A stretch of 64,000 bases of DNA from the NCBI GenBank assembly GCA_963806465.1, contig CAWDZD010000051.1, forward strand, positions 32,810-96,809. Direction: 5' to 3'. The position numbers and the translations under genes are program-made. The DNA is from an uncultured Alphaproteobacteria bacterium (GTDB lineage: Bacteria; Pseudomonadota; Alphaproteobacteria; Rhizobiales; Xanthobacteraceae). The notes under the pieces were generated by a model. It did no database searches. It saw only the letters and a program-made list of their open reading frames with translations, and was not told the DNA's origin. Positions 1 through 21,955 of this stretch are shown in pieces (the first letter of the stretch is position 1; each line of letters starts with the position of its first letter).

Positions 1-1895
1 TGTATAAGGGCGTGGGAAAACGTGTAGACGGCGTTCGGTATCTCGCCCCGGCAATTCACGAGCCCAGCGCCGACCAGCAAGCGCAGCGCATTGGTGAGCG
101 CGGTCTCGCTCATCAGTTCGAGTCCGGCAATCAACTCGAAACTGAACTCGCGGCCGATCACCGAACCGACCTGTGCGATCTCCTTGCAGACGGTGACCCG
201 ATCGAGCCGAGCCATCAGCAAGTCGCGCAGCGTTTCGGGGATGGTGATACGGGCCGACGACTGGGCAAAGGCATAGCGATCGCCTTCAACGACCAGATCG
301 CCCAATTCCAGGATGCTCTTGGTCAGCTCCTCGATGAACAGCGGCACACCGTCGGTCCGCGCGACGATCTGGTCGGCGAGGCCGGCCGGCAGCGCCTTGC
401 GGGCGACGATCTTGTCGATCAGCGAACGGCTCTGGGCCGGACTGAACTTGGTCAACTCGATCGCCGAGACATCGGCGCGATCGCCCCATGGCGATTTGAA
501 TTCCGGGCGCGCGGTGACGACCAGGAGCGTCGGCACATCGACCAGCCGGTCGACCAGGCGGCTGAGCACGTCGAGCGTCGTCGGGTCGGCGAGGTGCGCG
601 TCCTCGAACAACAGCAGCGTCGGCTGGGTGCGCGCCGCGGCGCGGACGATATCGACCAGCACCCGCATCGTGTCTTCCTTGGCGAGCTTGGGCGAAATCA
701 AGATGGCGCCGTAGCGGTCCTGGTACGGCAGCGACAACATCGCGGCGATAAAACGCAGATCGTCTCGCGGCAGACCGAGACGATCGACGACCAGAGCCTC
801 GAGCTTGTTGAGCCGCGAGTCGACGTGCTCGTCACGGCCGAATTCGAGCGTGCGTTCAAACCACGCCCGGATCGGATAGAACGCGCTGTTGACGAAGAAC
901 GGCGAGCATTGAAACACCAGCGTGTAGCTGGATTGATCGCGCAAACGCTCGCGCAGCGCGGCGACGATCCGGCTCTTGCCAAGGCCGGCCTCGCCGCGCA
1001 CCACGACGGCACGGCCGGCGCCGGTTTGCCGCACATGCCGCCAGCGATCGAGCAGGCTGTCGATTTCCGCCTCGCGTCCAACGAGCGGCGTCATGCCATG
1101 GTGTGTCGCCGCTTCGAAACGACTTGGCGCCTCGCTGACGCCGAGCACCTGATAGACCCGGGTAAGCCCGGAGACGCCTTTGAGATCCTTTTCGCCCAGG
1201 TCCTCGAATTCGAATCGGCCGGCGGCCAAACGCTGCACCGGCTCGCTGACGACAATCGAGCCCGTATGGGCGATCGACTGAAGGCGCGAGGCCAGGTTCA
1301 TGGTCTCGCCCACCGCATTGCGCTCGCCGGAAGTGACAACCACCATGCCGGCGGCGATGCCGATGCGAACCTGCAGCTTTCCGGCGCCGGGGATGTGCAG
1401 GCCCGAGATCGTTTCGATGATGTCGAGCCCGGCCCGGATCGCGCGTTCGGCTTCGCCCTCATGCGCCAGCGGAAAGCCGAAGAACGCGACAATACCATCG
1501 CCAAGCGTCGTGAAGACATAACCCTCGTAGCGATTGACGCAGGTCGTGCAGGCGTCTTCATAGGCGCGAATGACGACCTGCAGCCGCTCGGGATCGAGCT
1601 TGTAGGCGAGCTTGGTGAAGCCGACCATGTCGCAGAACATCACCGTCAGGTGACGTCGTTCGCCGACCGGAACGCTGACCACGGCGTCGAACGGGGTCGA
1701 CTTTTCCAGCCGCTTCTCCTCGCCAAGCAGATGGATGATCCGCTTGCGCGGCCCGAACGGCACGCCGATCTCTTTCAGGTCGGCTTCCGTCAGCATGCGA
1801 AACGTCAAGAGATCGACTTCATTTTCCTCGAAGACCGAGGCAAAACGTTCGAGGCCGTGCGACTTCAGCCATTCGGTGAGTGAGGATGTCACCAT
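1..1895 (-). CDS. SAM-domain / class III adenylate-guanylate cyclase / AAA (STAND-type) ATPase signalling protein; the 3' end runs off the window start
   Basis: Absent from the ORF track because there is no stop inside the window. Hand translation of the minus strand from ATG 1895 gives MVTSSLTEWLKSHGLERFASVFEENEVDLLTFRMLTEADLKEIGV (SAM-like). It continues ERRHLTVMFCDMVGFTKL...TLGDGIVAFFGFP...GETMNLASRLQ (class III cyclase), then GEAGLGKSR (Walker A) and LLLFEDAHLADPTT. The plus-strand ORF 12..1883 is its antisense shadow. The ATG overlaps the upstream stop (ATGGTGA). Confidence 0.85.
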   Translation of the reverse strand, partial: MVTSSLTEWLKSHGLERFASVFEENEVDLLTFRMLTEADLKEIGVPFGPRKRIIHLLGEEKRLEKSTPFDAVVSVPVGERRHLTVMFCDMVGFTKLAYKLDPERLQVVIRAYEDACTTCVNRYEGYVFTTLGDGIVAFFGFPLAHEGEAERAIRAGLDIIETISGLHIPGAGKLQVRIGIAAGMVVVTSGERNAVGETMNLASRLQSIAHTGSIVVSEPVQRLAAGRFEFEDLGEKDLKGVSGLTRVYQVLGVSEAPSRFEAATHHGMTPLVGREAEIDSLLDRWRHVRQTGAGRAVVVRGEAGLGKSRIVAALRERLRDQSSYTLVFQCSPFFVNSAFYPIRAWFERTLEFGRDEHVDSRLNKLEALVVDRLGLPRDDLRFIAAMLSLPYQDRYGAILISPKLAKEDTMRVLVDIVRAAARTQPTLLLFEDAHLADPTTLDVLSRLVDRLVDVPTLLVVTARPEFKSPWGDRADVSAIELTKFSPAQSRSLIDKIVARKALPAGLADQIVARTDGVPLFIEELTKSILELGDLVVEGDRYAFAQSSARITIPETLRDLLMARLDRVTVCKEIAQVGSVIGREFSFELIAGLELMSETALTNALRLLVGAGLVNCRGEIPNAVYTFSHALI

Positions 1896-3310
1896 GGCGA
1901 CGCCCTGCCTTGGTTCGCTGTTTCGACCAGTACGCCATGATTGACGAGCCAGCCGGCGATGGCGAGGCCGCAATCGAGCGGCATCAGGTTAGACCAGGAT
2001 TGGGCAATTTGCAGCGGTGTTCGGCCAGCAGGCAAACGTCGCAGCAGCGGCGCGAGTTCCCACCCGCCGAGATAGGCGACCGGCCTTTGCAGGCCCGGAT
2101 GATGAAGGGCCTCGGCGACGCCGACAAAGTCGCCGTCGAGGCAAGGCGTGCGCACCAACGCGGCGTCACGGCAAAGCTGCACCGGCATCGCAGTCATTGC
2201 ATGGCCATCGACCGGGGTCGACGACGGCGACTTCGGCTCCGGCGCCCCGTGCTTGGCGGCGCGCTCGCGCCAGAAGGAATGGCTGTTCTTGTCGGATACG
2301 GCGCCATAATGCTCGGCGGTCCAGCCGCGGTGCCGCTCCGACGCCTCGCTTAGTTGGGCGCGATAGAAGCTGAACGCCGCCGGCGCGCTGTCCGGCCGCC
2401 GCAGCAGGGTATTGGCGACGACAGCGCCTGAAAGCGCGCTGGCAATGGCCTTCTGTACCCCGCTCGAGGAAATCGGATCGATCGCCAGCGCCGCGTCTCC
2501 CAGCCGAATGGCGTTCGGCGCGACGCAATCGTCTGCAAGATAAGGCGTCGCGTCGATCGCCCGTACCGGACCGCTCAGTTCCGCTTCGCGGCAATCCTGC
2601 ATCAGGCTTGAGCGGCCGAGCAGGGTCAGAAACCGCTGCGCGAGCGAGGAGCCCGGCACCGACCGCAACGATTTTGGATCGACGAAAGCGAGCGTGTTGT
2701 AGGTCTGGTCCGGGAGCGGGACGCCCCAGAACCAGGCATCGTCGCCGGCCTCGATCTGCGGCGCCGCCGGCAAACTTGCGCCGCGCCAATACGCATAGAC
2801 CGCAAGCGTCCTCGCTCCGGTTTGAGCCTGATGGCGAGCGGTGCGGTCGCGCCGTCCGCCGGCGTCAGCCAGAAAGTCGGCCTCGATCTGCATCTGCCGC
2901 CCGTCCACATCGAACGCGATCCGCCATCTACCGCCGCGCCACACCCGCTCGTTGATACGTGCCGGCTGATGCACCGTGACGCCGAAGGCGCGGACGCGCT
3001 CGACGAGGCGCATGTCGAATCGGCCGCGATCGACCAGCAAGCCTTGTTCGTGTGGATCGTCGCGCCATTGCGGCCCGTCGGCCCACTTCACCCGCACGCG
3101 ACGCACACGCGGGAAATCGGCCGCCTCGATCGGCTCATGAAGGTTCGCCGCCCGTAACAACGGCACCGTCCCGGGACTGAGCAACTCGCCGAGCCGACGT
3201 CGCGGAAAGCGTTCGCGTTCGATCAGGCGCACGTCGTGCCCGAGCTGCGCCATGCGCGCTGCGAAGGTAGAGCCGGCCGGGCCGGCACCGACAACGCAAA
3301 CACTAGCCAT
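1889..3310 (-). CDS. FAD-dependent oxidoreductase, LodB/GoxB/QhpG-like (group A flavoprotein monooxygenase / halogenase fold)
   Basis: ORF track 1889..3607. Start trimmed to ATG 3310: MASVCVVGAGPAGSTFAARMAQLGHDVRLIERE has the GxGxxG Rossmann motif plus an acidic beta2 end. A later GDAALAIDPISSSG motif is present. The start overlaps the rSAM stop by 8 nt (ATGGCTAG). Confidence 0.8.
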   Translation of the reverse strand: MASVCVVGAGPAGSTFAARMAQLGHDVRLIERERFPRRRLGELLSPGTVPLLRAANLHEPIEAADFPRVRRVRVKWADGPQWRDDPHEQGLLVDRGRFDMRLVERVRAFGVTVHQPARINERVWRGGRWRIAFDVDGRQMQIEADFLADAGGRRDRTARHQAQTGARTLAVYAYWRGASLPAAPQIEAGDDAWFWGVPLPDQTYNTLAFVDPKSLRSVPGSSLAQRFLTLLGRSSLMQDCREAELSGPVRAIDATPYLADDCVAPNAIRLGDAALAIDPISSSGVQKAIASALSGAVVANTLLRRPDSAPAAFSFYRAQLSEASERHRGWTAEHYGAVSDKNSHSFWRERAAKHGAPEPKSPSSTPVDGHAMTAMPVQLCRDAALVRTPCLDGDFVGVAEALHHPGLQRPVAYLGGWELAPLLRRLPAGRTPLQIAQSWSNLMPLDCGLAIAGWLVNHGVLVETANQGRASPW

Positions 3311-4664
3311 AGAGCGCGCCAGACGGTTCGACCCCGAGTTGCTCCGGCTGCGTCGAGAGCCGCAGATAAGCCTCCAGACAATAATGCAGCCAGCCGCGAA
3401 TAAAGTCGCAGGCCGGTCGGCCGCGCCGGATGGTTTCGTGATGACAGCCGCCGCCGCACAGGTAGCGTGCCCAACAGGATCGACAGGGCTCCTGCCGGTG
3501 CACGTGGCGTGTGGCCAGCCATTCGGCTTGGCGGCCCCGATCGATGCCGCCGGCAAGCGAGCCCATCGCTCCTTCGTCGTCGCCGACAAAGCGATGGCAG
3601 GCGGCAAGCTCGCCCTCGGCGGAAACGCCGAGATACCCGGCGCCGGCGCCGCACGGATAGGGCCGGTGCGTGCCGCGGTGGATCTCGCGCATCGCGTTGA
3701 CCATGTTGGCGAACGGATAGCGTTGCCGCAGCCGCGACCGGCGCTCGAACTCGCGACCGCACTCGATCATTTCGCCCAACATCAGTTCCAGATCATCCGC
3801 CTGCATTTCGCCGTTGCCGGTGGGCGCGCTCAACATCGGCGAAAAACCGACGCTGTGGAAGCCGGCGGCGATCAGGGAGTCCAACGTTTCCCGCAGCGCC
3901 AGATTCCTCGGCGTCACCGTGACCCGGGCCGAGACCTGCATCCGCCGCTGCAGCTTCAACAGCGGTGCGACACGCTGCATCACCCTGTCATAACTGCCGC
4001 GGCCATCCTTGAACGGCCGTAGCGCGTCATGCACCTGCCGCGGCCCATCGATGCTGATGCTGACGGCAAAGCCGTGGTCTTCGAAGAAGTTGGCATCGTC
4101 CTCGGTCAGCAAGGTACCGTTGGTGGTGATCGAAAAGTTGATTGTCGCGTCGCGGGCTTGCGCCGATTCAAGCGCCCGCCGCGTGGCCGCCCGCAGCACG
4201 TCGCGATTGACCAACGGCTCGCCGCCGAGAAACGCCAAATTGAGTTTCGCGCCGGGCTCGGCGTTTTCGGTCAAAAGTTCGACGGCGCGCAGCGCTTCGC
4301 CGAGCGGCATATTTTTCGCCGCGCCGCCGAACTCGCCCTGTTGGGCGTAGCAATAAGTGCAGCCGAGATTGCATTTTTGCGCGATGGCGAGCGAAAGCGC
4401 CCGGATCGGCGGCGGCGGCAGCGGCGTGTCATCGATAAAAGGCTTTCCGCTCAGGCCAGCCCGTCGCAGCAACTCATCGATCTCGGCGGCTTCGCCCCGA
4501 GCCACGGCCGCATCGTACGAGGCGAACATTTCGGCGTCGGCGTCGAACAGCCGGCTGCCGTCGGCGACGAACAGATGGCCGCCCGTGGCGCTTTCGATCA
4601 AATGAAGTTGCGGCGTCCTCGGTGTTGACGCGCGAACATAGTGGCGGGCGTCGGCGAGGCTCAC
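3303..4664 (-). CDS. Radical SAM / SPASM-domain maturase (QhpD / anSME-like)
   Basis: CNLGCTYCYA is the CX3CX2C motif, and GGEPL is present. The C-terminal Cys cluster reads PCGAG..ACHRF..CRSCWARYLCGGGCHHE..ACDF..YC. Start set to GTG 4664, one nt after the upstream TAG. The ORF-track start at 4739 would overlap the upstream gene by 74 nt. Confidence 0.9.
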   Translation of the reverse strand: MSLADARHYVRASTPRTPQLHLIESATGGHLFVADGSRLFDADAEMFASYDAAVARGEAAEIDELLRRAGLSGKPFIDDTPLPPPPIRALSLAIAQKCNLGCTYCYAQQGEFGGAAKNMPLGEALRAVELLTENAEPGAKLNLAFLGGEPLVNRDVLRAATRRALESAQARDATINFSITTNGTLLTEDDANFFEDHGFAVSISIDGPRQVHDALRPFKDGRGSYDRVMQRVAPLLKLQRRMQVSARVTVTPRNLALRETLDSLIAAGFHSVGFSPMLSAPTGNGEMQADDLELMLGEMIECGREFERRSRLRQRYPFANMVNAMREIHRGTHRPYPCGAGAGYLGVSAEGELAACHRFVGDDEGAMGSLAGGIDRGRQAEWLATRHVHRQEPCRSCWARYLCGGGCHHETIRRGRPACDFIRGWLHYCLEAYLRLSTQPEQLGVEPSGALYG

Positions 4665-4665
4665 C

Positions 4666-7203
4666 CTATTTGTCCGGCTTCGCGGGCGGCGGATAGTCGT
4701 GTCCGCCGACCTGGAATTGCAATTTCGTTTCCCAATCACGGAACAGTTCGTCGTACATCATCAGTCGCGTATCGCCATAGTCATCGGCGATATAGGAACC
4801 GGTGCGCTTGCGCTGCATCCAGTTGTCGCCGGTGGCGAATCCCGCTGCGGTCGTCGTGATGTTGACAAAGTCGGGCCGCGCCGAAGCCCAGTAATAGCAA
4901 GAGCATTCGCGATAGTCGTTTTGCCACGGCGAACAGAGGCCTTGCGTCAGTTCGCCGGCCTGCGCCAGCGCATCGGAAATGACTGCGGTATCGTCTTTAA
5001 AGAACGGCCTGATTTCCAAGTTGAAGCTGACGTAATTCTTCAACTCCGGCGAAAGGTCCTGCTCCCACGACATATCCTCGCTGAGCTGCTCGTCCGCCGC
5101 GATGACATCGCTGCTATACAGCAATTGCTGCTGCTCCCAGGCGACATCTTTGCTGAAATCGCAACGCACCTTTTTGCCGGCGTGAGGCAGCACCCGCGCC
5201 AGGGCGTTCGACCATTCCACGGCCGCCAGGCCGTACGGGTTCATGTTTGTCGTCAGGTCGACCTTGCCGTCCGGGTCTGACGACGCCGGTCCTTTGATCG
5301 GCGTCATCATCGGCAACGCAGCCTCGCTCTTGCCGTCCGGCCGGGGCACGACCACGCGCAGCAATCGGCGTCCGGCCAAATCCGCGACCGTCAGCGTACC
5401 ATCTACGCTTTTAGTGCCGGCGGCGTCTCCGGTCTTGTCAGCGCGCACGACGAGATTGTCATGTTCGCGCAGCTCGACGCCCTTGAACACCCGTCGCCAC
5501 ACGGCGCGGAAATCCACTTCCAGCCCCGGACAACAATTCGCGACCGAGGTGATCGGCCGCGAACAAATCGGGTTGCCTCTCGCTTCATAGTGAATCTGCG
5601 CCGACAAGTTGCGTGGCTTCAATCCGCCGTTGCCGCCGACACCGGCCGCGGGAGCCGGCACCGCCACCGGCGGGTCTTGTGCCGTTTTCTTGATGGTTTC
5701 GATCTGACGCCACGTCAGCGCCAGGTAGTTATTGTCGGCGCCGCACATCAGCGCCGGCATCTTGCGCCGACCGTGATCGGTGAAGTCGGCAACTTCGTTA
5801 GGCATCCGCAGCAGCCGCACAAACCACGGTGCCGCGCCGCCGCGCAGCGCCGCGTAGGCCTGCTGGTGCAGGGTCATGGCCGCGAATGTGTCGACGGTGC
5901 CCGGTGCCATGACCGGACGGATGGCACGCTCGGTGTCGGCGGCTTCCTCTTCGGGCATCGAATTGAGCGACAGCGCCGGCCGCCCCTTGTAGTCGTTGCC
6001 GTTCATCACCACGACGTTCATGAAGCGAACCGTCTCGAACGCCCGCCGGACGATATCGAGGGCACGCGCCCGCGTGACTTCCGGCGTCTCATTTTCATCG
6101 ACGTCCGGCCCATGCACCGCTTGATCGAGATCGTCGGCAAGCGAGCGCACAAACAGCAAGTCCGGCGCCATAGCTGGCGGCGCGGCGCAGATGCGCGCGG
6201 TCGCTTGCAGTTTACGACCGTTGGGCAGCGCCAGATGCACCTCGACGAAGCCGTCGCAGGCGTCGTCGAGGTAGCCGCGGCTGATCGCCCGATTGTCGAA
6301 CAGCCAGGACGGCGCCGGCGGCTCGATTGCAAACAGATCGGGCGGCACGGTTTCATTGTTAAAGTCCGGCGGCAGGCCCAAACTCTCGCGCCACTTCTTC
6401 AGGGCTGAGTCTGGCTCTTTCTCGCGGTCCGGATCGCCGAAGCCTTTCCAATTCCTGCCCGCGTTTATCGCGTCGCTATAGACCGCGCGTTGCTTTGGGA
6501 TCTGATAGTGCGCGAGGAATTCCAGCCCGTCCGGCGGACTTGCGTACTGCGCGCTTGCAGCCAATTCGGGGCCATAAATCAAACCTTTCGCCGGCGTGAA
6601 ACGCAGGCGGATTTCCGGAAATTTCGCGTTCGGCTTGATGAAACGCACCTGGCCAAAATCGACGTGTCCGCCGTTGACGAAATTCTTGCAGGTGCCGCGC
6701 AGTGGTTGCGCCTTGTGGTCCTTTATCGACGGCAGCTCGGCATGAACAATGTCGGCGTCGTCGCCGGTCCGTCGGGCAACCTTGCGGTTGGCGACGCGCA
6801 CGCGCCAGCTGATGTCGTCGACGCCAAGCCCGTTGCTTTTCAACAAGTCGGTGGTCAGCGGCACCAGCGCGTCGTCGCCTTCGACGATGGCGAAGACCTC
6901 GAGAAACGGCGCCACCGGGCGGATCTTGGGGTGTTTCCTGTGCGTTCCGTCCTGGCTGTTGTCTTCGCCTTCCTTGAATTGCGGCTTGCTCGGTGTGCGC
7001 TCATCCTCGATTTCGCCAGACCACTGGTTGACGAACAGCGTTGGCTGCATCTTGATGATACGGTAGTCGAGCGGGTACTTCTCGCCTGCCGCAACGTCAA
7101 CCTCGATGGTATAGTTGTCCATCGGCGTGTCGGCGGAACCGAGCCGCGCGATCGCAAACGGCGGCAGAATTCGCAGCTCCTTGATCGTCCGCTTGGTAGC
7201 CAA
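4666..7203 (-). CDS. LodA/GoxA-family protein (putative cysteine tryptophylquinone amino-acid oxidase), 845 aa
   Basis: The N-terminus LRILPPFAIARLGSADTP resembles the LodA N-terminal VHPSIGVARLGN signature as I recall it. CCPGLEVDF (cf. MCPGIEMTW) and CSPWQNDYREC...YYWASARPD (cf. CPWQADFFNC...YWWPPQSP) also fit. TTG start at 7203 with AAGGGG upstream. The conserved N-terminal motif begins at residue 10, so no later start is possible. Confidence 0.75.
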   Translation of the reverse strand: MATKRTIKELRILPPFAIARLGSADTPMDNYTIEVDVAAGEKYPLDYRIIKMQPTLFVNQWSGEIEDERTPSKPQFKEGEDNSQDGTHRKHPKIRPVAPFLEVFAIVEGDDALVPLTTDLLKSNGLGVDDISWRVRVANRKVARRTGDDADIVHAELPSIKDHKAQPLRGTCKNFVNGGHVDFGQVRFIKPNAKFPEIRLRFTPAKGLIYGPELAASAQYASPPDGLEFLAHYQIPKQRAVYSDAINAGRNWKGFGDPDREKEPDSALKKWRESLGLPPDFNNETVPPDLFAIEPPAPSWLFDNRAISRGYLDDACDGFVEVHLALPNGRKLQATARICAAPPAMAPDLLFVRSLADDLDQAVHGPDVDENETPEVTRARALDIVRRAFETVRFMNVVVMNGNDYKGRPALSLNSMPEEEAADTERAIRPVMAPGTVDTFAAMTLHQQAYAALRGGAAPWFVRLLRMPNEVADFTDHGRRKMPALMCGADNNYLALTWRQIETIKKTAQDPPVAVPAPAAGVGGNGGLKPRNLSAQIHYEARGNPICSRPITSVANCCPGLEVDFRAVWRRVFKGVELREHDNLVVRADKTGDAAGTKSVDGTLTVADLAGRRLLRVVVPRPDGKSEAALPMMTPIKGPASSDPDGKVDLTTNMNPYGLAAVEWSNALARVLPHAGKKVRCDFSKDVAWEQQQLLYSSDVIAADEQLSEDMSWEQDLSPELKNYVSFNLEIRPFFKDDTAVISDALAQAGELTQGLCSPWQNDYRECSCYYWASARPDFVNITTTAAGFATGDNWMQRKRTGSYIADDYGDTRLMMYDELFRDWETKLQFQVGGHDYPPPAKPDK

Positions 7204-7219: not shown

Positions 7220-8942
7220 TCAAGCCTCTGCAGCGATGATCCTATTCATCCAATCCCGTGCCTGTGTGTCCAATTGCAACAACGTGTGCAGATAGGCGTC
7301 GGCGCCGGTGCAAGCGAGTTCGTGTTGGTACTTGGCCGCGTTGGGATTTCTGGATTTCGAAGGATCGGCGTCGGCGAGCAGCGCCATGCAGATCTTCTGC
7401 GACGCAGCAAGAAGATTCTCGTGCCGGCGCCACATGTCGACGTCGCGATCCGGGAGCGTCAGTGTATACGGCAGTTCGAACGGCGGCGCCGCCCTCTCGT
7501 CATCCCTGCCGTTGTCGCTGCGCGGCAGGCGCACCAACAGCCCGGAGATGGTCTTGAGGTTGTACATTTCACCGAACACGCGGTGCATGATCATGGCGCG
7601 AAGATTCGGCCGGTCGACGCGCTCACTGCGCGAGATGCGAAAACTGTGCGCCAGATAGTTCAACAGCAACCGGTAGCGCTGGTTGAACAGCTGCGCCAGG
7701 TGCCCGGCGCTTTTTCCGCTAATCACTATGGGTTGTCCGCCGCCTTGTCCGGCAAGTTGTGCAACCGGCTGGCCTGCGGCCGGCAACTCGGCGCCGTGTC
7801 CGGTGGCGGATGCCGTCGCCGCCATGAAGCCCGTAAGCGTGATCGGATTGGCAGGAATGCCGGCAGCCGGCAACCAGCTGGGGTCTTTGCCCTGCTCGTC
7901 CTTGAACTCTTGGTAGATTCTTCAGGAAACGCTTGAAGTGAGACACCTCGTCTTTGCTATCGGGCAACAAGGGATTGCGCAGGTGTGGCGCCTCACCCTG
8001 GGCCGCCAGCGCCTTCAACGCCTTTAGCGCGTCGGCCCGGGTCGCCATGCGATCGATTTGGACGATGCCGTCGTGCGCCGCCTGTCGCTCGTCTCGCTCG
8101 TCGTCCGCCAATTTTTTCTTGTCTTTCCCGGATTTTTGCTTGTCGTTCCCCGACTTTTTCTTGTCGTCTTCTGGTTTCAGGTTGTCGCCCAGCGGATTTC
8201 CCTCGGCGTCAAGTTGACGCGGAGGAGCTTTGTAGCCGCGGCCCCATTCGTCCCAGGAAGCCTGAAACTCGTAACTCGATTCATCGAACATCTCGTCCGG
8301 GATGTTGCTGCGATCGGCGATCAAGTCGATGATCTCTTCGTAGAGCTCGCCGACACGGTGCACATCGGACTTGAATGTGCTGCCGAAATATTCGTGCAAT
8401 TTCGGCAAGACCTCGTTCTTGACGATAGCGCGATCGTCTTCACAAAAATCAGTATCCGAGGCGTCGAACGACGGCGCCTCGGCATAGACAAAGCAACTCA
8501 GCGACAGCAGCGAGACCGGCTCGAGCGTAAACGGATAGGGATAGTATTCCCGCGCCCACGGCGAGGAGTCGCGACCGATGTCGACCGTGGAGCCCAGCAA
8601 GAGCCGCAGATTCTGCACCGTCAGGAGGTGTCCCATCTCCTCCCTGGCGACCGCGATAATGTCGGCGCGCCAACGCTCGATCATTTTCCGGCGGTCCTTG
8701 TCCGGCTCGTCGATGCGAAGCGAGTATGCGGCGTAGAGATATTGCACCATCAGGCAGTGCTCGACGGTGGCGCCAAACGACAACAGCATCAATAGATGGT
8801 CGCGCCACGTCATGTCCGGGCGCTTGGGATGGTCGGCGGCCCATTTGGCGCGCACACGTTGTCTGTGAGATTGTCGTCTGGCGAATTCCCCGGAGTCTTC
8901 GGGAGCAATAATGGCCGAGTTGGTCCGCGCGCCAGTGTTCAT
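7220..8942 (-). pseudogene. Ferritin-like domain protein (PF12902-type, the family I associate with the VioB/RebD domain), split by an apparent 1-nt frameshift near 7916-7923
   Basis: ORF 7719..8942 carries LSFGATVEHCLMVQYLYAAYSL, IAVAREEMGHLLTVQNL and YPYPFTLEPVSLLSLSCFVYAEAP, then decays into Arg-rich junk after EVSHFKRFLK. The +1 frame continues sensibly (IYQEFKDEQGKDPSWLPAAGIPANP...) into ORF 7220..7873, which has LFNQRYRLLLNYLAHSF. Removing one A from GAAGAATC restores a protein of about 574 aa. Confidence 0.7.
8112..8172 (-). repeat. Three imperfect ~21-nt tandem repeats encoding a Lys/Asp-rich linker (KKKSGNDKQKSGKDKKK) inside the ferritin-like gene
   Basis: The plus strand reads tttttcttgtc / tttttgcttgtc / tttttcttgtc at about 21-nt spacing. 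Confidence 0.6.
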
Positions 8943-9662: not shown

Positions 9663-10373
9663 ATGACGACCGAGACGACAGCGGCGCGCGGCCGCAAACT
9701 GCTGGAACAATGCCCGCTATTCGCTGGAATGGACGAGCGCAGTCGGCGTGAACTGGTCGCGCTGGCCCTGCCCCGCAATTTCGGCGTCGGCGAGCCGATC
9801 TGCCGCCTGGGCGATGTCGGGCTCAGCATGATGGCGGTGGTCACCGGCACGGTGCGCATTACGCTGCCGATGCCCAAGGGCAAGGAGATCATCCTGGCCG
9901 ATCTGCCGGCGGGCGAGCTGTTCGGTGAGATCGCGATGCTCGACGGCAAGCCGCGTTCGGCGGACGCCACCGCCCTGACCAAGTGCGAGCTCCTGGTCCT
10001 CGAGCGCCGCCACGTCATCCCGATTCTCGAGCAGAACCCGGCGATGTGCCTGAAGCTGATGGAGATGCTTTGCGCCCGAATCCGCCACTCCGACGAGCGC
10101 ATGGCCGACATCGCGTTCTTCGACCTGCCGACACGGCTTGCCAAGGTGCTGCTGAACTATCCGGCGAAGACCCGCGACGATACCCAACTCTCCTTGTCGC
10201 AGCGAGAATTGGCGGAAATGGCCGGCGGCACGCGCGAGAACGTCAATCGCTGCCTGCGTGATTGGCAGCGGCGCGGCATCGTCGAGTCGAAGGGCGGCTG
10301 GACCATCATCCGCAAGGCTGAGGAACTGCGCCGCCTGGCCGCGGGCAGTTCGATCGAAACCGCGATGTTCTAG
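9663..10373 (+). CDS. Crp/Fnr-family transcriptional regulator (cNMP-binding domain plus C-terminal HTH)
   Basis: GELFGEIAMLDGKPRSADATA is the cNMP-binding beta-roll signature. LSQRELAEMAGGTRENVNRCLRDWQRRG is the HTH. There is no FNR-type N-terminal Cys cluster. Confidence 0.9.
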   Translation: MTTETTAARGRKLLEQCPLFAGMDERSRRELVALALPRNFGVGEPICRLGDVGLSMMAVVTGTVRITLPMPKGKEIILADLPAGELFGEIAMLDGKPRSADATALTKCELLVLERRHVIPILEQNPAMCLKLMEMLCARIRHSDERMADIAFFDLPTRLAKVLLNYPAKTRDDTQLSLSQRELAEMAGGTRENVNRCLRDWQRRGIVESKGGWTIIRKAEELRRLAAGSSIETAMF

Positions 10374-10407
10374 AAGCTATCTCGGCCCGGCCTGAGGATG
10401 AAAAAAC

Positions 10408-11388
10408 TCAGTGCTTCGGTTCGGTCGCTTCCGAATAGCGGGCATAAAGGTGATCGACCCGCTCCCGCCACATGGTCACAAAGGCGGCAGAGGTAAGTTT
10501 TTCGACTGACTTCCAGGCCTTTTTGATATCCGGAAGCGTGTTTCCCCAGATCGCGCGCTTGCACCAGCGCTCGCCTTTTTCCCTGCCTTCATCGGTGGCG
10601 CACATCGACTGCCAGGCGATCCGCTCCGGATGGGCGACGTGTTCGGCGGCTCCCTGCCATCCCTGTTGGTGGATCAGGTAGAGATCGCTGAATGTCGGTT
10701 TCTTGTGGGTGTCCATTTCGAACAGCGTCGCCTCGGTGACAAACTTGTAGGCGGCGGCAATGGCGTTATCGCGGGCACTGGTAATTTGTCCCGATCCGTA
10801 TTTGGTGAACTCGTAGTTATTGAGCTGGAACAGGCCGATATACGACCCGGTGCGTTGCTTCGGATCAAAGTCGGACTCGATCTTGGCGACCGCTCGCATA
10901 AAACTGAAATCCAGGCCGAACGCATCGGCCGCGCGCTTGATCTCCTCGATCGGAGTCCCGACCGGGACATCTTTTAGCGTGTCCAACACGATGTCGGCGG
11001 GCCTTCGCTCGGGAGGCAGCTCCGAATAGACATAATAGGCGAGATAGGCGAAGTCCGGTTTTCGCGGCGGCTGCTCGGCGGCATGGTCCTGAACCGGGAC
11101 GCGCTCCTCCAACTTTGCCGATTTCGTCGCCGGAGGATCTACGGCGGCTTCAGTTTCGCTGGAGGGTTTCTCTTCGAGAGGAAGCGAGGGCACGTGCGCC
11201 GAGAGTCCCTCAGACGCGGCGGCGACCTCGGAAGAAGCCGGCAACGCCGCGACGACTTCCGGCTGGGCCGCTGCGTCAGTTAGCGCGCGATCCGGCGTGT
11301 TGTTGACAACAACCACGCTGAGAACAGCTACGCTAATCGCAATCATTGCAACGGCAACGACGATGCCAGCGAGCCGCCAAATTTTCAT
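10408..11388 (-). CDS. Membrane-anchored lytic transglycosylase (SLT-domain) protein
   Basis: N-terminal TM helix MKIWRLAGIVVAVAMIAISVAVL. SLT-like AVAKIESDFDPKQRTGSYIGLFQL (catalytic E-S ... GLFQ). Confidence 0.8.
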   Translation of the reverse strand: MKIWRLAGIVVAVAMIAISVAVLSVVVVNNTPDRALTDAAAQPEVVAALPASSEVAAASEGLSAHVPSLPLEEKPSSETEAAVDPPATKSAKLEERVPVQDHAAEQPPRKPDFAYLAYYVYSELPPERRPADIVLDTLKDVPVGTPIEEIKRAADAFGLDFSFMRAVAKIESDFDPKQRTGSYIGLFQLNNYEFTKYGSGQITSARDNAIAAAYKFVTEATLFEMDTHKKPTFSDLYLIHQQGWQGAAEHVAHPERIAWQSMCATDEGREKGERWCKRAIWGNTLPDIKKAWKSVEKLTSAAFVTMWRERVDHLYARYSEATEPKH

Positions 11389-11746
11389 TATTTCCCCGAC
11401 CCGTTACGCTCTATTTCCCCAACCCGTTACGCCATGCTTCCCCGATGCGGCATTTAAGCTTGAATTGCCGCGAGGTGCAATAAAATCGTCATTATCATAC
11501 AGCCAAACAAAAAGATGATAAATCCGACTGGCACGATACTGCCCAAAGTCGAACACGGCTCTGACACGAGATCGGCGTCAAGTAACCGCATTTCAAAAGC
11601 AAGAGCCGCCGCAACCCGGCCATGACGAACAGAAGGGCTCCGGCGCCGTGCCTTGCTTGGGCAAAAGTCAGCGTTGCTGACTTGACCGCGGATCGCTCCG
11701 GGAGCGTATTTGTTGCCGGGACGGGGGACGTCAGGGAGGACGTCCC

Positions 11747-11953
11747 ATGGAAAATTTGCACCGCACGCCCGGCGTGGAAGGCGTCAGCGGAAAGCCGCTT
11801 CAGCTCTGTCCAAATTGCGCCGTTTATATTATCGCCGCCACCTGGTCGGAGCGGGTGAGCGAGCGCTGCGTGCGTAACGTTTGGTCCTGCGAGTCTTGCG
11901 GCTTCGAGTTCGAAACCTCCGCTTATTTTCCGGCACAGCGGACGCCGAACTGA
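11747..11953 (+). CDS. Small Cys4 zinc-ribbon-like hypothetical protein (68 aa)
   Basis: The ATG is preceded by GGGAGGA at 6 nt. CPNC...CESC pairs are present. Confidence 0.55.
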   Translation: MENLHRTPGVEGVSGKPLQLCPNCAVYIIAATWSERVSERCVRNVWSCESCGFEFETSAYFPAQRTPN

Positions 11954-12125
11954 AGCGGCCACTCAACGGGAGCAGTTATTGCTCCATCTTTCTCAGCTGG
12001 CCAGCAGGCGCTCTTGAGCCGTGAGGCGCTCTGGGCGTCGGTAGGCTTGTCCCGCCGCGGCGTCACACACGCTGGCGGTCTAAGGAGCCCTTCGCCGATG
12101 GGCGACGGCCGGCGTGAGCTTTTCG

Positions 12126-12323
12126 TCAGTGCAGAACGGTTTGCGCGGCTTCTTCAAGCTGCATGGCCCGCACTTTGATGTTGAGCTGCGGGAACTGATC
12201 TTTGAGTTGCAGGCCAGCTCTGAGCGCATCGATAAAGCGGCGATGCCCCGACTTCGTCCGGCCGTCGATCTGAAGCACAAAGTATTCGTGGTGCAGACTG
12301 TAAGTCGCTATAGCGTTCTTCAT
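12126..12323 (-). CDS. Small conserved hypothetical protein (65 aa); paralog of 37948..38136
   Basis: Start trimmed to ATG 12323, preceded by GGAGGG. MKNAIATYSLHHEYFVLQIDGRTKSGHRRFIDALRAGLQLKDQFP is about 60% identical to the second copy. Both share an identical ATGGAGGGTGCCATG start context. Confidence 0.55.
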   Translation of the reverse strand: MKNAIATYSLHHEYFVLQIDGRTKSGHRRFIDALRAGLQLKDQFPQLNIKVRAMQLEEAAQTVLH

Positions 12324-12769
12324 GGCACCCTCCATCGTTGCCTTCGAACACCGAGTATGAGCGCTGCTCGCTGGCATCCCCGGGTTCGAAGTATCTGCTA
12401 ATGGTGTGTCGTAAGTTGGTCGTGGGCGGTTCAAGCGCCCGAAAAGAAATTCCTGTTGTAAAAACGTCACTAAGTCCGCCGGCGACTAAATTCCGCAGCG
12501 TAAACAGGGACATGCCCGGACCCGCCTGCGGTCATCCTCAGGCGGCGGGCCGAGGGATCCAAAAACTGAAGCCTCATTCGACCGATCCGTCAGTGGAAAA
12601 GCATTACGGAAGCGAATCGCCCAGCCGGTCTGCCCCCACCCCTGGCTCCGCATTTTTCGGTCACGCTATGTTCCAAACAACATAGCAAGCCTGCGCGCAA
12701 ATGAGCGACGGCGACAGCACTTCAACGCCGGAGTTGCACGGGCTTAAGGGTCTCACATCACGCGATCAG

Positions 12770-13456
12770 TCACGCGCCCGGGTTGGCTGGCGACAACGTC
12801 ACACCGAAGTGGCGTTCGATGACGTAGCGGATGTTTTCATAGCAGGAGCCCACGCGAACGACTTCCAGCGTTTCCACGTTGAGCAGCGTCGATGAAGCGG
12901 CATAGGTGTGAAATTTCTGCAATCCATGATCGATGATGACGTCGGCGATGGCCTTGATTTCGGGCTCGATCGCTTCGACGGCGAATTTGGTTCCGCTCAA
13001 GCTGCGGTTGGCCGACGAGCCGAACAGCGGATGGCTTTCGTTGAAGCTCAGCCGCGTCATCGCCGCATGAAATTTCCCGGCGTTCAAGAGCATGACCAGC
13101 GTGTTGTCGCGCGTACTCGCGGCCAGCGTGTCGGCCGGCAGCGCTCGCAGCAGCGCATGATCGATGCGGCAGGGCGCGATGCAGCCTAACGGCAAATCGT
13201 AATCGCCGGTGATGGCGGCGACGATGTCGCGGCCGCGCTGGCTGCAAATGTGCAGTTCGCGATGGATGTCGGTGTTTCCCACCATGGCGTTGAGCTTGGA
13301 CGCGGCGCGACCCTTGGTCTCGAAGATGCGCCGCAGCGCCGGACCGGAGCCGCCGAGGATCGAATAGCCGATGTCATTGGGCACAATGGCGATGCCGCCT
13401 GCCTTCAACGCATCAAAGGCTCTGCGCGCATCAGCCTCAAGATCGAAAAGGCCCAA
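12770..13456 (-). CDS. YrdC/Sua5-domain (L-threonylcarbamoyladenylate synthase family) protein
   Basis: IAIVPNDIGYSILGGS...SKLNAMVG...PLFGSSANRSLSG pattern typical of YrdC-like folds. Confidence 0.8.
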   Translation of the reverse strand: MGLFDLEADARRAFDALKAGGIAIVPNDIGYSILGGSGPALRRIFETKGRAASKLNAMVGNTDIHRELHICSQRGRDIVAAITGDYDLPLGCIAPCRIDHALLRALPADTLAASTRDNTLVMLLNAGKFHAAMTRLSFNESHPLFGSSANRSLSGTKFAVEAIEPEIKAIADVIIDHGLQKFHTYAASSTLLNVETLEVVRVGSCYENIRYVIERHFGVTLSPANPGA

Positions 13457-13567
13457 AGGCTAGTCCTCGGTTATGGCAGGCCGCCTCCGACCCTACGTTC
13501 GCACTTGCGGCACGGGACAAGCCGATCAAATCGCGCTTGGCCTCGGCGCGTGCACGATATGCAACAT

Positions 13568-14782
13568 TCATTGCGCCGCCGTTAGGTCCGCCGCCAAATC
13601 CTTCGCACCCGGCAGTTTGACTTCCCGGTCCATCTGCGCGTCGGTGGCCGCGATCAGCTTGCTGACGACGTTGTTACGTTGCGCCACCGGATTGTCGCGG
13701 TATCCGCTCTGTTGAAAAAAATTCGAGGTCGGCACCCGGTCGCGCCATTCGCGAGGCATGGTGAACATGTCGAAGCCGTTGCCGTCACCGGTCAAGTTCA
13801 TCATCTCCAGCTCGGCGGCGGTCAACGTGCCGGAAAATCCCTTGCGGCGCGCGAAGTTCACCGAATCCATGAGCTTCTGGGTCTGTAGATAGGGTCCAAC
13901 ATCGACATCAAGATTCAGCGCATGAACGCCGAGCCCCTTCGGCGTGTTGGCCAGCACCTGATGCTTGTTCCAGTCGTCGGGTACGCTCCTGGCGAAATCG
14001 ATCATCCTGTGCATGATCGCAAGTTTGCTTTGCAGAGCCTTCTTTTCGGCATCCGGCAGGCTTGCGGCGCGCGCCTGCAAGCTCTTGACGAACGTGTCGC
14101 CGCTTTCGGCGATGATCTCGACCGAGTTGGTCGCCAGCAATTGATTATAGCCGAGCGCCGTGGTGATGGCGCGCGCCTGCTTGTCGCGCTCGCGCCCGGC
14201 TTGCACTTCGTATGTGCCGTTGCCGCCGGCCTCGAAGCTGTAGATGCGGACGATTTGTTCGGAATTCAGCCCGGCCGCGAGCGCAACCTTGGCATAGTCG
14301 CGCTTGAATTCGCTTTCGCTTTGCGGCGTGCGGGGCACGAATTCGAATTCCTGTCGGGCGTCGGCGAGAAAATCGCTGACCACCGGCACGTAGAGCGGCG
14401 GCGGGGCCTGTTCGGCCGGCTTCGATGGATCGCGCGGCTTCGGCGGGCCGGTATAAACCGGCGGCTGCGTCAGCACATAATCGTCGATCGACAGCTGCTC
14501 GTGGTTGGCGCGCTTAGCGTTGCGTTGGCGCCGCTGCTGCACAATCGAATTCCAGTAAGCGTCGGCCATAGCCGCGTACGCCGTTCGCGCCGCCTGATAT
14601 TCCGCCAAGGCGCGGCGATACTGCGCCATGGCTTCGGCGGATACCGCCGGCGCTGGTACTTGATCCTTTTGCGCCTCGGCCGCGAGCGCGCCGGCCGTCC
14701 AAGAAAGAATGAAAGACACCGCCAGCAAACGGGCGAAGCGGCGGCGATGAAGTGAATTGAAATTCAATGTGAACGTATCCAA
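13568..14782 (-). CDS. Exported hypothetical protein (404 aa)
   Basis: Signal-like N-terminus HRRRFARLLAVSFILSWTAGALAAEA. High GC3 throughout. TTG start 8 nt after the upstream stop. YSFEAGGNG...LGYNQL hints at a lysozyme-like fold only weakly. Confidence 0.65.
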   Translation of the reverse strand: MDTFTLNFNSLHRRRFARLLAVSFILSWTAGALAAEAQKDQVPAPAVSAEAMAQYRRALAEYQAARTAYAAMADAYWNSIVQQRRQRNAKRANHEQLSIDDYVLTQPPVYTGPPKPRDPSKPAEQAPPPLYVPVVSDFLADARQEFEFVPRTPQSESEFKRDYAKVALAAGLNSEQIVRIYSFEAGGNGTYEVQAGRERDKQARAITTALGYNQLLATNSVEIIAESGDTFVKSLQARAASLPDAEKKALQSKLAIMHRMIDFARSVPDDWNKHQVLANTPKGLGVHALNLDVDVGPYLQTQKLMDSVNFARRKGFSGTLTAAELEMMNLTGDGNGFDMFTMPREWRDRVPTSNFFQQSGYRDNPVAQRNNVVSKLIAATDAQMDREVKLPGAKDLAADLTAAQ

Positions 14783-14790
14783 GTCACGCG

Positions 14791-15135
14791 CTAGTGCCGC
14801 TTGTCACGCCCGCCGCCACCACCGCCACCACGTGATCCGCCGCCGCGTCCGCCACCGCGCTGCCCGCCGCCGGGTGGCGGTCCGCCTTGGCGCTGATTGC
14901 GGTTGGACGGTTGTTGCTGATGCTCAGGCTGGCGGTGCTCAGGTTGCCGGTGTTCGGGCTGCCGGTGTTCGGGTTGCGGGTTGTTTCGCCCCGGCCGATT
15001 TGGTCCGGAGCGATTGCCACCGCGCGCACGCACTCGCTCGATGGTCATGCGGCGGCCGATCGTGTGCGAAGCAAACAGGCGCCGCAGCACGCCGCGATCG
15101 CGCGCCGCCTCCGCCGGCGGGATCTGGAACGGCAC
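14791..15135 (-). CDS. Small Arg/Gly-rich protein with a PEHRQ x4 repeat and an RGG tail (114 aa)
   Basis: GC3-rich ORF ending GGQRGGGRGGGSRGGGGGGGRDKRH. The product is unknown. Confidence 0.45.
   Translation of the reverse strand: MPFQIPPAEAARDRGVLRRLFASHTIGRRMTIERVRARGGNRSGPNRPGRNNPQPEHRQPEHRQPEHRQPEHQQQPSNRNQRQGGPPPGGGQRGGGRGGGSRGGGGGGGRDKRH
14921..14980 (-). repeat. 4 x 15-nt tandem repeat encoding (Q)PEHR repeats
   Basis: The plus strand reads tgctcaggctggcgg / tgctcaggttgccgg / tgttcgggctgccgg / tgttcgggttgcggg. Confidence 0.9.
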
Positions 15136-15162
15136 GGCGCGAAAGCCGCCGCCCGGACCCCG

Positions 15163-15837
15163 TTAAATCGCAAATGCGCTGGCGCCTTCCGTCAGTGTGC
15201 CGAGCCGTCCGCCTTGCCGGTTGAAGACATCGATCTGGCCGACATGGCCGTCAGCGTCCGGATAAAGTTTGATTTTCGACACGCCAGCGCCTCCCGCCGC
15301 GCCCGTTCCGCCCGGCGGCACGTCGACCACGCCGGTCGTGCCGCGGATGCCGAGCGTCGTGCTCGAGGTGTCGATCCTCATGTCGCCGGTCTTGGCGACC
15401 AAGCTGGCGACGAAGGCCGCCGTGCCGACGGCGACATTGAAGGTCGCGGCGTTGCCGCTGCCGCCTTCCTGATAGATGAACTCGTCGACCACGATGCGGG
15501 TGTTGGCGGACAGACTGAACGTGGTTTGGTCGTCGAAGGTAATGCCAAGCGTCGAATTCACATCCGTCGCCAGAATGTCATGTTTAAGAATCGGATCTTT
15601 GACCCGCAGAGCGACGGTGGTTGCCGGATTGCCGCGAGTCACCGAGGCAGTGCCTTTCAACGTCGCGACTTGACCGACGTCGCTGGAGCCCTGATCGGCT
15701 GCAGGTTGATCCGCCGGGTTTTGCGCGCGCGCCGCGAGCGACCAAAATGCCGCGCATGACGATGTGCATAGCGCAGCGAAATGCGTGATGAATTCGCGCC
15801 GCTTCAAAATTGGCCTCGGAAGCCCTGCCGAGGTCAA
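15163..15837 (-). CDS. FecR-domain exported protein
   Basis: Tat-like KRREFITHFAALC...AARAQ leader. GQVATLKGTASVTRG...LKHDILATDVNSTLGITFDDQTTFSLSANTRIVVDEF is typical of FecR-family sensor domains. TTG start. Confidence 0.75.
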   Translation of the reverse strand: MTSAGLPRPILKRREFITHFAALCTSSCAAFWSLAARAQNPADQPAADQGSSDVGQVATLKGTASVTRGNPATTVALRVKDPILKHDILATDVNSTLGITFDDQTTFSLSANTRIVVDEFIYQEGGSGNAATFNVAVGTAAFVASLVAKTGDMRIDTSSTTLGIRGTTGVVDVPPGGTGAAGGAGVSKIKLYPDADGHVGQIDVFNRQGGRLGTLTEGASAFAI

Positions 15838-15895
15838 AAACGGCAGGGGCAGGAGAATTCCCTATCCCGCGGACAAGAAGGGCCTAAGAAAGCGG

Positions 15896-16435
15896 CTATT
15901 TGTTGATCGTCGCCGCGCCCGCCATGCAAACCACCTCGTCCTGCGAGCCGGTGGCGCCGGAGCAGCCGATCGCCCCGATGAGCTTGCCGTCCTCGATCAG
16001 CGGAATGCCGCCGCGCGAGGCGACCACGTCGTCGAGCGTGGCAATGAACGCAAGGCCTTTTTGCACAGCCTCTTCGAACACCCGCGTCGGCCGGCGGAAC
16101 TTGGCGGCGGCACGCGCCTTGTGCTCGGCGATGGCAATCGAGGCCAGTTGCGCGCCGTCCATGCGCGCAAAGGTGACAAGATTGCCGCCGGAATCGACCA
16201 CGGCGACGTTCAAGGCCCAGCCATGCTGATTGGCTTCCGCGAGCGCCGCCTGTACCGCCTCTCCCGCCTTTTTTAGCGAAATCGGCGTGCCGTATGGCGT
16301 GTTGAACGGCATCTTCTCCGGAACGACGTCGAGCGGATTTTGTCCGGGCGCAGGCGCCGGTTGCTGGGCGTGCGCCGGCGCCATGGCGAGGAATCCTGCC
16401 GCCAGCAAAACCATCGTCGATGCGCGCATCGTCAT
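15896..16435 (-). CDS. GlcG/HbpS-like (DUF336) heme-binding family protein, exported
   Basis: Start trimmed to ATG 16435 with a GGGAGAGAG SD. Signal peptide MTMRASTMVLLAAGFLAMAPAHA. The motifs SIAIAEHKARAAA and GGIPL..DGKLIGAIGCSG are present. Confidence 0.85.
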   Translation of the reverse strand: MTMRASTMVLLAAGFLAMAPAHAQQPAPAPGQNPLDVVPEKMPFNTPYGTPISLKKAGEAVQAALAEANQHGWALNVAVVDSGGNLVTFARMDGAQLASIAIAEHKARAAAKFRRPTRVFEEAVQKGLAFIATLDDVVASRGGIPLIEDGKLIGAIGCSGATGSQDEVVCMAGAATINK

Positions 16436-16781
16436 GACTCTCTCCCTGGCTCGATCATGCGAGTAGCCTTGATCATAAACGACAAGCCGCCATGCCCGCC
16501 AGCTTGCGGCGCCGATCCCGAGCTGAATGTGATGCAAGCCGGCCGCGCGTGCCGGCAAAAACGAACGGCCCGGCCCTGAGGGAGTCCGGGCCAAGGCCGT
16601 TCTATGCCGAAGGGTGTCCCATCAACCCCACCCCGACACGTCGTCATGGTACTGACACGAGGTTGATCGTTCGTTACAGCTGCGGCGTTCACCATATGGC
16701 ACCGCGCAACGCACCACCGACGTTTGCACTGGCGGACCATGCGCTCCGTCAGCGACCGTTAACCAGCGTCGCGAACAAATC

Positions 16782-17162
16782 TCAGCGCGCCGCAGGAGCG
16801 CGAGAGAGCTTTTTTGCTTCCAGCTCCTCGAGATAGTCGCGCCAGTTTTTGTCGTGATTTATGCCGAGCTCGAACAGATAATCCCAAGTGAAGATCCCGG
16901 TCGAATGGGTGTCGTCGAACACCAGGCGCACGGCATAATTGCCGACCGGATGCAGCTCCAGGATCTGCACATCGCGCTTGCCGGCGACAAGGCGGCGCTC
17001 GGCGGGAGAATGACCCTGCACTTCCGCGCTCGGACTGCGTACCCGCAAATATTCCGCCGGCAGCGCGAAGCTTTGGCTGTCGTCGAACGTGACGGCAAGG
17101 ACTTTGCGGTCTTTCTGCAGACGCAGCTCCGTCGGCCAGGGCGTGGTTGCAGTGTTGCTCAT
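16782..17162 (-). CDS. DUF971 (gamma-butyrobetaine hydroxylase N-terminal-like) protein
   Basis: LAVTFDDSQSFALPAEYLRVRSPSAE...VGNYAVRLVFDDTHSTGIFTWDYL. Confidence 0.8.
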   Translation of the reverse strand: MSNTATTPWPTELRLQKDRKVLAVTFDDSQSFALPAEYLRVRSPSAEVQGHSPAERRLVAGKRDVQILELHPVGNYAVRLVFDDTHSTGIFTWDYLFELGINHDKNWRDYLEELEAKKLSRAPAAR

Positions 17163-17185
17163 CGAGATCGAACCTTTGCGCACAC

Positions 17186-18676: not shown

Positions 18677-18679
18677 CGA

Positions 18680-19369: not shown

Positions 19370-19385
19370 TGTTCGTTTCCTTCTC

Positions 19386-20432: not shown

Positions 20433-20445
20433 CGCCTTTCAGTAA

Positions 20446-21922: not shown

Positions 21923-21955
21923 TCGCCGTCGAAGTAGCTGAACCGGCCACTATTT

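Follow-up and report, generated by a model that had tools for sequence, protein, structure and literature searches.

The window analysed here is a 64,000-nucleotide stretch of DNA from an uncultured alphaproteobacterium of the Xanthobacteraceae (assembly GCA_963806465.1, contig CAWDZD010000051.1, positions 32,810 to 96,809 of the forward strand). It carries five translationally coupled minus-strand genes, which encode a ferritin-like protein, a LodA-like protein, a radical S-adenosylmethionine (rSAM)/SPASM enzyme, a flavoprotein and a cyclase/AAA_16 protein. The second of these (4666–7203) specifies an 845-residue protein, publicly a 'hypothetical protein', which sub-threshold Pfam matches, an AlphaFold2 model, Foldseek, hhalign and the split forms of the gene place as a distant relative of LodA and GoxA. 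Only three enzymes with the cofactor cysteine tryptophylquinone (CTQ) are recognised in a 2025 review, namely quinohaemoprotein amine dehydrogenase (QHNDH), LodA and GoxA, served by two separate maturation routes (PMC11951088). Our subject is a Cys/Trp-rich motif close to the C terminus of the 845-residue protein (4867–4935), its relation to the CTQ sites of these enzymes, and the neighbouring genes that may mature it.

Read on the minus strand, nucleotides 4935 to 4867 translate to CSPWQNDYRECSCYYWASARPDF, residues 757–779 of the open reading frame (ORF) at 4666–7203, which can be numbered C757-S-P-W760-Q-N-D763-Y-R-E766-C767-S-C769-Y-Y-W772-A-S-A-R-P-D778-F; the stretch of the protein that spans it is GELTQGLCSPWQNDYRECSCYYWASARPDFVN. 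The plus-strand reading of the same nucleotides was rejected, the peptide being unrelated. On the basis of this translation, of invariance within the family, of alignments to LodA and GoxA and of a spacing shared with QhpC, the motif is a putative cofactor loop. Its key residues, all on the minus strand, are the predicted CTQ pair C767 (4903–4905) and W772 (4888–4890), the predicted active-site and acceptor aspartate D763 (4915–4917), the extra cysteines C757 (4933–4935) and C769 (4897–4899), and the predicted acceptor D778 (4870–4872).

The density to which the initial annotation drew attention, with three Cys, two Trp, one Asp and one Glu in 16 positions, was confirmed for residues 757–772; the entire protein contains 11 Cys and 15 Trp. 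When the protein was shuffled 20,000 times, at least three Cys and two Trp fell within 16 residues in 85 cases, so that the cluster is uncommon on composition alone. Conservation, as read from the aligned family, is the stronger case for the motif being more than chance. C757, P759, W760, Q761, D763, C767, C769, Y771, W772, P777 and D778 are present in all 27 representatives of the family, the most distant of them at 28% identity, and position 766 is occupied by Glu in 23, Asp in three and Gly in one. Of 83 loci (L001–L003 and the 80 genome loci L004–L083), 82 carry the strict motif; frameshifts in the assemblies account for the single miss (L023) and for the one aberrant copy (L047). The expectation that the extra Cys, Asp and Glu would be conserved in orthologues was thus borne out for C757, C769 and D763 and fell short for E766. 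Since E766 is not strictly conserved it is a less likely acceptor than D778, and the likely second acidic partner is this invariant residue, which lies beyond the 16 positions originally singled out.

The 845-residue protein is a fusion of two parts that are separate genes in other genomes. An N-part (residues 1–505; 5689–7203, minus strand) is followed by a low-complexity linker (residues 506–525) and by the motif-bearing C-part (residues 526–845; 4669–5628, minus strand). Both LodA domains of Pfam were detected below threshold (LodA_N, PF17990, 20.0 against a cutoff of 26.3; LodA_C, PF18417, 16.2 against a cutoff of 25), and the NCBIfam GoxA model was not passed either (21.8 against 750). 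Some relatives do pass in Pfam, such as the N-part of Bradyrhizobium barranii with LodA_N (30.2) and a C-part fusion of Nostoc with LodA_C (25.6). Searches of the PDB by phmmer with the whole protein and with its C-terminal 97 residues gave nothing relevant, and a profile of the family recovered LodA and GoxA as top matches in three collinear blocks. An AlphaFold2 model from a 104-sequence alignment reached a predicted local distance difference test score (pLDDT) of 85.6 and a predicted template modelling score of 0.91; a run with only 35 close orthologues (pLDDT 54, below 50 over the motif) was not used. With this model, all 50 Foldseek matches in the PDB (E ≤ 1e-3) were GoxA or LodA, with E values around 1e-10 over 500–680 aligned columns at 11–14% identity, making this fold the sole PDB match; the global template modelling (TM) score to GoxA and LodA is low (0.22–0.31).

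The alignments place the motif at the CTQ site. In the profile–PDB alignment 'GELTQGLCSPWQNDYRECSCY' pairs with LodA residues 499–519, 'GDLTKRMACPWQADFFNCTIQ', matching D763 to D512 and C767 to C516; the CTQ residues of LodA are C516 and W581 (PMC4417212). Our canonical reference set consisted of nine plasmid-borne genes annotated as 'LodA/GoxA family CTQ-dependent oxidase'. When the family was compared with these by hhalign, residues 305–516 aligned with a probability of 97.5% and residues 747–832 with 84.5% (E 7e-6), residues 517–746 having no aligned counterpart. In the second match D763, C767 and W772 fall on the conserved active-site Asp and CTQ Cys and Trp, with a 13-residue deletion between Cys and Trp, and the Cys-to-Trp distance is 5 here as against 65 in LodA, 15 in GoxA and 13–44 in the nine canonical proteins. 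The initial annotation had LodA carrying its Cys and Trp in two well-separated motifs, brought together in the window protein; the LodA Cys motif, ACPWQADFFNC, is indeed as stated there, the convergence of the two motifs is what the hhalign alignment displays, and both methods select C767, and hhalign W772, as the residues matching the CTQ pair. The equivalence of the Trp rests on alignments to GoxA (PSWWAANLP) and the nine canonical homologues, in which the Trp motif is seen.

Further likenesses to LodA and GoxA include the shared strings 'ILPP.AIARLGS' (N-terminal), 'DD.CDG', 'PG.LT...PWQ.D...C' and 'W.A..P..V', and a flavoprotein gene in the operon. In contrast, beyond the low identity and the sub-threshold scores, the window family has two extra invariant cysteines (C757 and C769) and the invariant D778, whereas the nine canonical proteins have no Cys at either position and D, N, V or F in place of D778. 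The window family also has an rSAM gene between oxidase and flavoprotein, a flavoprotein of QhpG rather than LodB type, an obligatory ferritin-like partner, and split-gene forms.

A second set of likenesses connects the motif with QhpC, the gamma subunit of QHNDH, for which the sequence from the Paracoccus pantotrophus qhp operon served as reference. The QhpC segment LC27QPMEAD33LYGC37ADPC41WW43PAQVAD49 can be written against LC757SPWQND763YREC767S-C769YYW772ASARPD778 of the window protein, with identical spacings L-C-x-P-x3-D-x3-C and W-x5-D, so that with one gap C757, D763, C767, W772 and D778 match C27, D33, C37, W43 and D49; the spacing of the CTQ Cys and Trp is 5 in the window protein and 6 in QhpC. 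The cross-links of QhpC are thioethers C27–D33 and C41–D49 together with the CTQ C37–W43 (PMC7876137). The likeness to the gamma subunit, proposed initially from residue density, is therefore closer than first described, with the same spacing and with QhpD-like and QhpG-like neighbours.

When 119 QhpC sequences were compared by hhalign with the full-length family, just two matches resulted, of which the CTQ loop was the second (QhpC 53–84 to residues 755–785, score 16.6). The top match joined QhpC 2–46, comprising the leader and C7...E16, to residues 526–564 (LKPRNLSAQ...NCCPGLEVD) with a score of 26.0 and P of 0.008, at an HH probability of only 4.8%; 40 column-shuffled controls reached at most 21.5 and a reversed alignment 18.4. 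The two matches are collinear and jointly span most of QhpC. The matched segment, GGLKPRNLSAQIHYEARGNPICSRPITSVANCCPGLEVD (5512–5628, minus strand), opens the C-part, coincides with the start of the small proteins in split forms, and is weakly similar to the QhpC leader, with L-x-P-x-N-x-x-A in common. It may be an rSAM recognition element; the binding of QhpD requires the QhpC leader (PMC7876137). Among the 27 representatives N544, P545, N556, P559, G560, L561 and D564 are invariant. C557, the equivalent of QhpC C7, occurs in 20 of the 27, and a third thioether would therefore not be general. Collectively these matches are suggestive, not proof, that the C-part could be a QhpC-like module with an insert of about 190 residues and a retained leader-like recognition element. 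Several features set the two proteins apart. The window motif lies within 845 residues, or within a small protein of about 260–300 residues in split forms, compared with 82 residues for QhpC; its leader-like segment and CTQ loop are roughly 190 residues apart, and the fused forms have no cleavable leader. Furthermore, the window family offers two loop cysteines for thioethers where QhpC offers three, and its partner is a ferritin-like protein where that of QHNDH is a haem protein.

The co-encoded rSAM/SPASM enzyme invoked as a maturase by the initial annotation is real: its gene (3303–4664, minus strand) begins with a GTG codon 1 nt past the stop codon of the LodA-like gene and encodes 453 residues. 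Its best NCBIfam match is TIGR03906, QhpD (306.2 bits), followed by PapB at 266 bits, and its alignment with Paracoccus QhpD shows 35% identity over 361 residues with the CxxxCxxC and SPASM cysteines conserved, consistent with a QhpD-like member of the ranthionine-type thioether synthase family. PapB and QhpD both form thioethers from Cys sulphur to an Asp/Glu side-chain carbon (PMC11002830). The ranthipeptide/SCIFF-type maturases, to which the PapB score relates the enzyme, differ in acting on a short leader–core substrate to give a secreted peptide product, whereas the predicted substrate in the window is a large enzyme and the predicted outcome a cofactor cage.

The flavoprotein gene (1889–3310, minus strand; 473 residues) overlaps the rSAM gene by 8 nt. 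Its product exceeds the cutoff of the QhpG model NF049967 (315.6 bits against 240), scoring 103.7 with LodB (cutoff 400) and 99 with GoxB, and its identity to Paracoccus QhpG is just 28% over 272 residues; as a QhpG-type flavin-dependent monooxygenase it is predicted to dihydroxylate W772. The ferritin-like gene (PF12902; 7220–8942, minus strand; about 550 residues in orthologues) ends 16 nt ahead of the LodA-like start, the two genes overlapping by 4 nt in orthologues; the protein has no conserved Cys cluster. In contrast to the Paracoccus qhp operon, the window cluster has no counterparts of the QHNDH dihaem alpha subunit, the beta subunit, the QhpE protease or the QhpF exporter. A separate small precursor of a ribosomally synthesised and post-translationally modified peptide was considered as the rSAM substrate and rejected, the conserved genes overlapping and no small ORF being conserved; a 68-residue ORF in L001 is what a frameshift has left of part of the ferritin-like gene.

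Scanning species-representative genomes, one for each species, gave 464 confirmed matches, all annotated 'hypothetical', from Alpha-, Beta- and Gammaproteobacteria, Acidobacteriota, Verrucomicrobiota, Gemmatimonadota, Planctomycetota, myxobacteria, Bacteroidota and Cyanobacteria. Counts of neighbouring genes refer to the best 80 of the 464, which span many phyla. Among the 73 loci with enough sequence, the rSAM gene is the next one downstream, on the same strand, in 71, from at least seven phyla; the ferritin-like gene is the next one upstream in 75 of 76. A QhpG-like gene occurs in 65 of 67 loci, on the downstream side in 52 and on the upstream side in 13, the Acidobacteriaceae loci belonging to the latter. 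The most conserved component is the rSAM enzyme, at a median identity of 71% compared with 52–55% for the LodA-like protein. The only clear exception among the 73 loci is L081, and in L032 both maturase genes are about 9 kb upstream. Each of the nine canonical LodA/GoxA genes is directly followed by a LodB/GoxB-type flavoprotein gene and has no rSAM gene. Comparison of orthologues with and without an rSAM neighbour, suggested at the outset as a check, thus finds the extra cysteines kept with the rSAM gene and missing in the nine canonical proteins that have none.

The linkage withstands rearrangement of the oxidase gene. In the split form an N-part of about 450–570 residues, ending ...GRRKMPALMRGADG..LALTRRQ, is encoded separately from a motif-bearing C-part of about 260–300 residues beginning M..L.PRNLTAQ; some split N-parts have an extra C-terminal domain of about 100 residues (…PLVV.G.PD.S.F…HPM.G…). 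On plasmids of B. barranii and Mycetohabitans endofungorum such pairs (L085, 5385–7932; L089, 4569–6867) are followed by the rSAM gene and by the QhpG-like gene, annotated there as a 'tryptophan 7-halogenase'. Nostoc sp. UHCC 0302 and Rhizobium sophoriradicis (L087, 8289–10184; L088, 8267–10021) have the motif-bearing C-part joined to a ferritin-like domain; the motif reads LCSPW[QT]xDFRDCGCxYWAxxxPD, and the fusion lies directly after an rSAM homologue of 40–45% identity. The motif stays with the rSAM gene in fused, split and ferritin-fused forms. The last of these implies, as a Rosetta-stone fusion, a physical interaction between the ferritin-like protein and the cofactor module. The gene upstream in Nostoc combines a ferritin-like domain with part of the N-part, and that in R. 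sophoriradicis encodes a remote N-part-like protein with no Pfam match. On the plasmids of B. barranii and M. endofungorum, canonical LodA/GoxA and LodB operons occur within a few kb of the rSAM-linked system (NZ_CP088279.1, L085/L086; NZ_CP132742.1, 455697–469428), so that the two kinds of predicted CTQ enzyme are found side by side.

We consider it probable that the motif is the cofactor loop of a cytoplasmic quinoprotein family, with a CTQ formed between C767 and W772 and rSAM-made thioethers C757–D763 and C769–D778, the links being predicted by analogy with the cross-links of QhpC. What was observed directly is that the loop is homologous to the CTQ site of LodA/GoxA, that its residues are invariant, that its spacing is identical with that of QhpC, and that its tight linkage to the rSAM and QhpG genes is rearrangement-proof. 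Relative to LodA and GoxA, the loop between Cys and Trp would have shrunk to four residues and C757, C769 and D778 would have been added. Maturation might begin with binding of the C-part by the QhpD-like rSAM enzyme, possibly via the leader-like segment 526–564, which would then introduce the two thioethers between Cys sulphur and Asp C-beta, with E766 as an alternative acceptor. The QhpG-type flavoprotein would dihydroxylate W772 within the C769–D778 ring, as QhpG does W43 within the C41–D49 ring, after which formation of the C767–W772 bond and oxidation would complete the CTQ. The mature enzyme presumably oxidises a primary amine or amino acid, and the ferritin-like protein may be its physical partner, as electron acceptor or as maturation oxidant.

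A number of points weigh against this assignment. The case is built from sequence, synteny and a model, and the cross-links are inferred from these; moreover, the confidence of the AlphaFold model over residues 750–780 is moderate (65–74). As regards QhpC, C769 is shifted one position relative to C41, the motif-level hhalign match is not significant alone (P 0.21), and neither the motif region nor the C-part was matched at E ≤ 10 by PF08992 (QH-AmDH_gamma), with which Paracoccus QhpC, as a control, scored 149 bits. The rSAM enzyme is below the QhpD equivalog cutoff of 453, its identity to QhpD is modest, and about 95 N-terminal residues do not align with QhpD. With QhpE, QhpF and the haem subunit absent, the last CTQ-forming steps would need another agent. 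Finally, L081, from a metagenome-assembled genome of Gemmatimonadetes (10001–22352), has the motif and the ferritin-like gene with no rSAM or QhpG gene within 10 kb.

The alternative that survives best, although we regard it as unlikely, is that the rSAM enzyme modifies the loop by chemistry other than that of QhpD: it might close the C767–W772 bond itself, form sactionine links from sulphur to C-alpha, or join carbons in a C–C or cyclophane link on W760, Y770, Y771 or W772, so that the end product would be a variant of CTQ or a cross-linked species of a new kind. The sub-cutoff QhpD score leaves space for this, as the enzyme also scores well with other SPASM maturases of varied chemistry; the loop is rich in aromatic residues, and closure of the Cys–Trp bond in the CTQ of QHNDH is left unsettled by PMC7876137 and PMC11951088. 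However, the five best NCBIfam families (QhpD, PapB, nif11-type, SCIFF and ScfB-related) are all Cys-directed maturases of the thioether group, the cyclophane families scoring much lower. Each extra Cys also precedes an invariant Asp partner with predicted ring sizes of 6 and 9, comparable to 6, 8 and 9 in QhpC, and the co-occurrence of QhpG fits the QhpC route.

Somewhat less probable again is an arrangement in which C757 and C769 bind a metal or form a structural disulfide close to a CTQ of LodA type, the rSAM enzyme having its substrate elsewhere in the cluster, for instance in the ferritin-like protein or in a small peptide that has escaped annotation. Copper has been implicated in formation of the LodA cofactor (PMC7876137), and all the variants examined, the distant clusters of Nostoc and Rhizobium among them, have ferritin-like genes flanking the rSAM gene. 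In those distant clusters, however, the rSAM-adjacent ferritin-like protein itself bears the Cys/Trp motif as an N-terminal fusion, so that the motif, and not merely the ferritin domain, tracks the rSAM gene. The lack of a conserved Cys cluster in the ferritin-like protein and of a conserved small ORF between the overlapping genes also argues against this arrangement, as does the absence of both cysteines and of an rSAM neighbour from canonical LodA and GoxA. A last reading is that the protein makes no quinone cofactor, the cluster being just a conserved turn in its structure and the similarity to a CTQ site a relic. This would accord with the unreached LodA/GoxA thresholds in Pfam and NCBIfam and with the low global TM-scores, but is very improbable, as invariant CTQ Cys, Trp and Asp and the retention across phyla of QhpG- and QhpD-type maturases with overlapping genes are hard to explain without a cofactor.

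Returning to the thioether-linked CTQ loop, a more far-reaching version is possible, although we hold it only tentatively and think it rather doubtful. The C-part would be a true QhpC homologue with an uncleaved internal leader-like segment and the insert of about 190 residues, and the family would be an evolutionary bridge showing a single origin for the CTQ loops in QHNDH and in LodA/GoxA. The family would then constitute a fourth CTQ class, a thioether-caged quinone in a large soluble protein, matured by an rSAM enzyme acting on the full-size protein and partnered by a ferritin-like (di-iron) protein in place of haem.

No NCBIfam model covers the 845-residue protein, and literature searches for an rSAM-linked LodA-like system found no published description. 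To judge from sequence comparison, it is a member of an undescribed and widespread family, a hybrid between the two CTQ systems known so far, in which a LodA/GoxA scaffold is combined with the maturation toolkit and cross-link pattern of QHNDH. This points to a fourth kind of CTQ enzyme. If true, the family would provide a soluble, cytoplasmic, haem-free system in which to study assembly of the thioether cage and CTQ, and would widen the reach of ranthionine-type rSAM chemistry to include large proteins. The evolutionary relation of both CTQ lineages is directly testable through its members, which also hint at an amine- or amino-acid-oxidising activity in soil and rhizosphere bacteria.

Several further features of the window and of the family were recorded. 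The ferritin-like gene of the window, identified by its Pfam domain, contains one frameshift near 7918–7923, giving overlapping ORFs at 7719–8942 and 7220–7873, which reflects either a sequencing error or a pseudogene; it is a single ORF of 544–559 residues in the closest orthologue (L004) and in L002 and L003, and is similarly split in L001. Among the family matches, many proteins of 900–2000 residues (P0168–P0243) contain the N-part only (profile positions 2–485), at about residue 450–900 or later, without the Cys/Trp motif. A 730-residue member with 40% identity (P0271) comes from a eukaryotic transcriptome assembly (a EukProt TRINITY contig) and is probably bacterial contamination. The fifth gene of the cluster (1–1895, minus strand) overlaps the QhpG-like gene and runs off the window, leaving the N-terminal 631 residues of a SAM-domain/adenylate-guanylate cyclase/AAA_16 protein (about 1113 residues in orthologues), as identified by stop-free translation and by the domains of orthologues in L001 and L003. 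A plus-strand ORF at 12–1883, without family matches, was rejected as an antisense artefact of this gene. The cyclase/AAA_16 gene was found in 65 of the 80 loci, and its product is probably a regulator.

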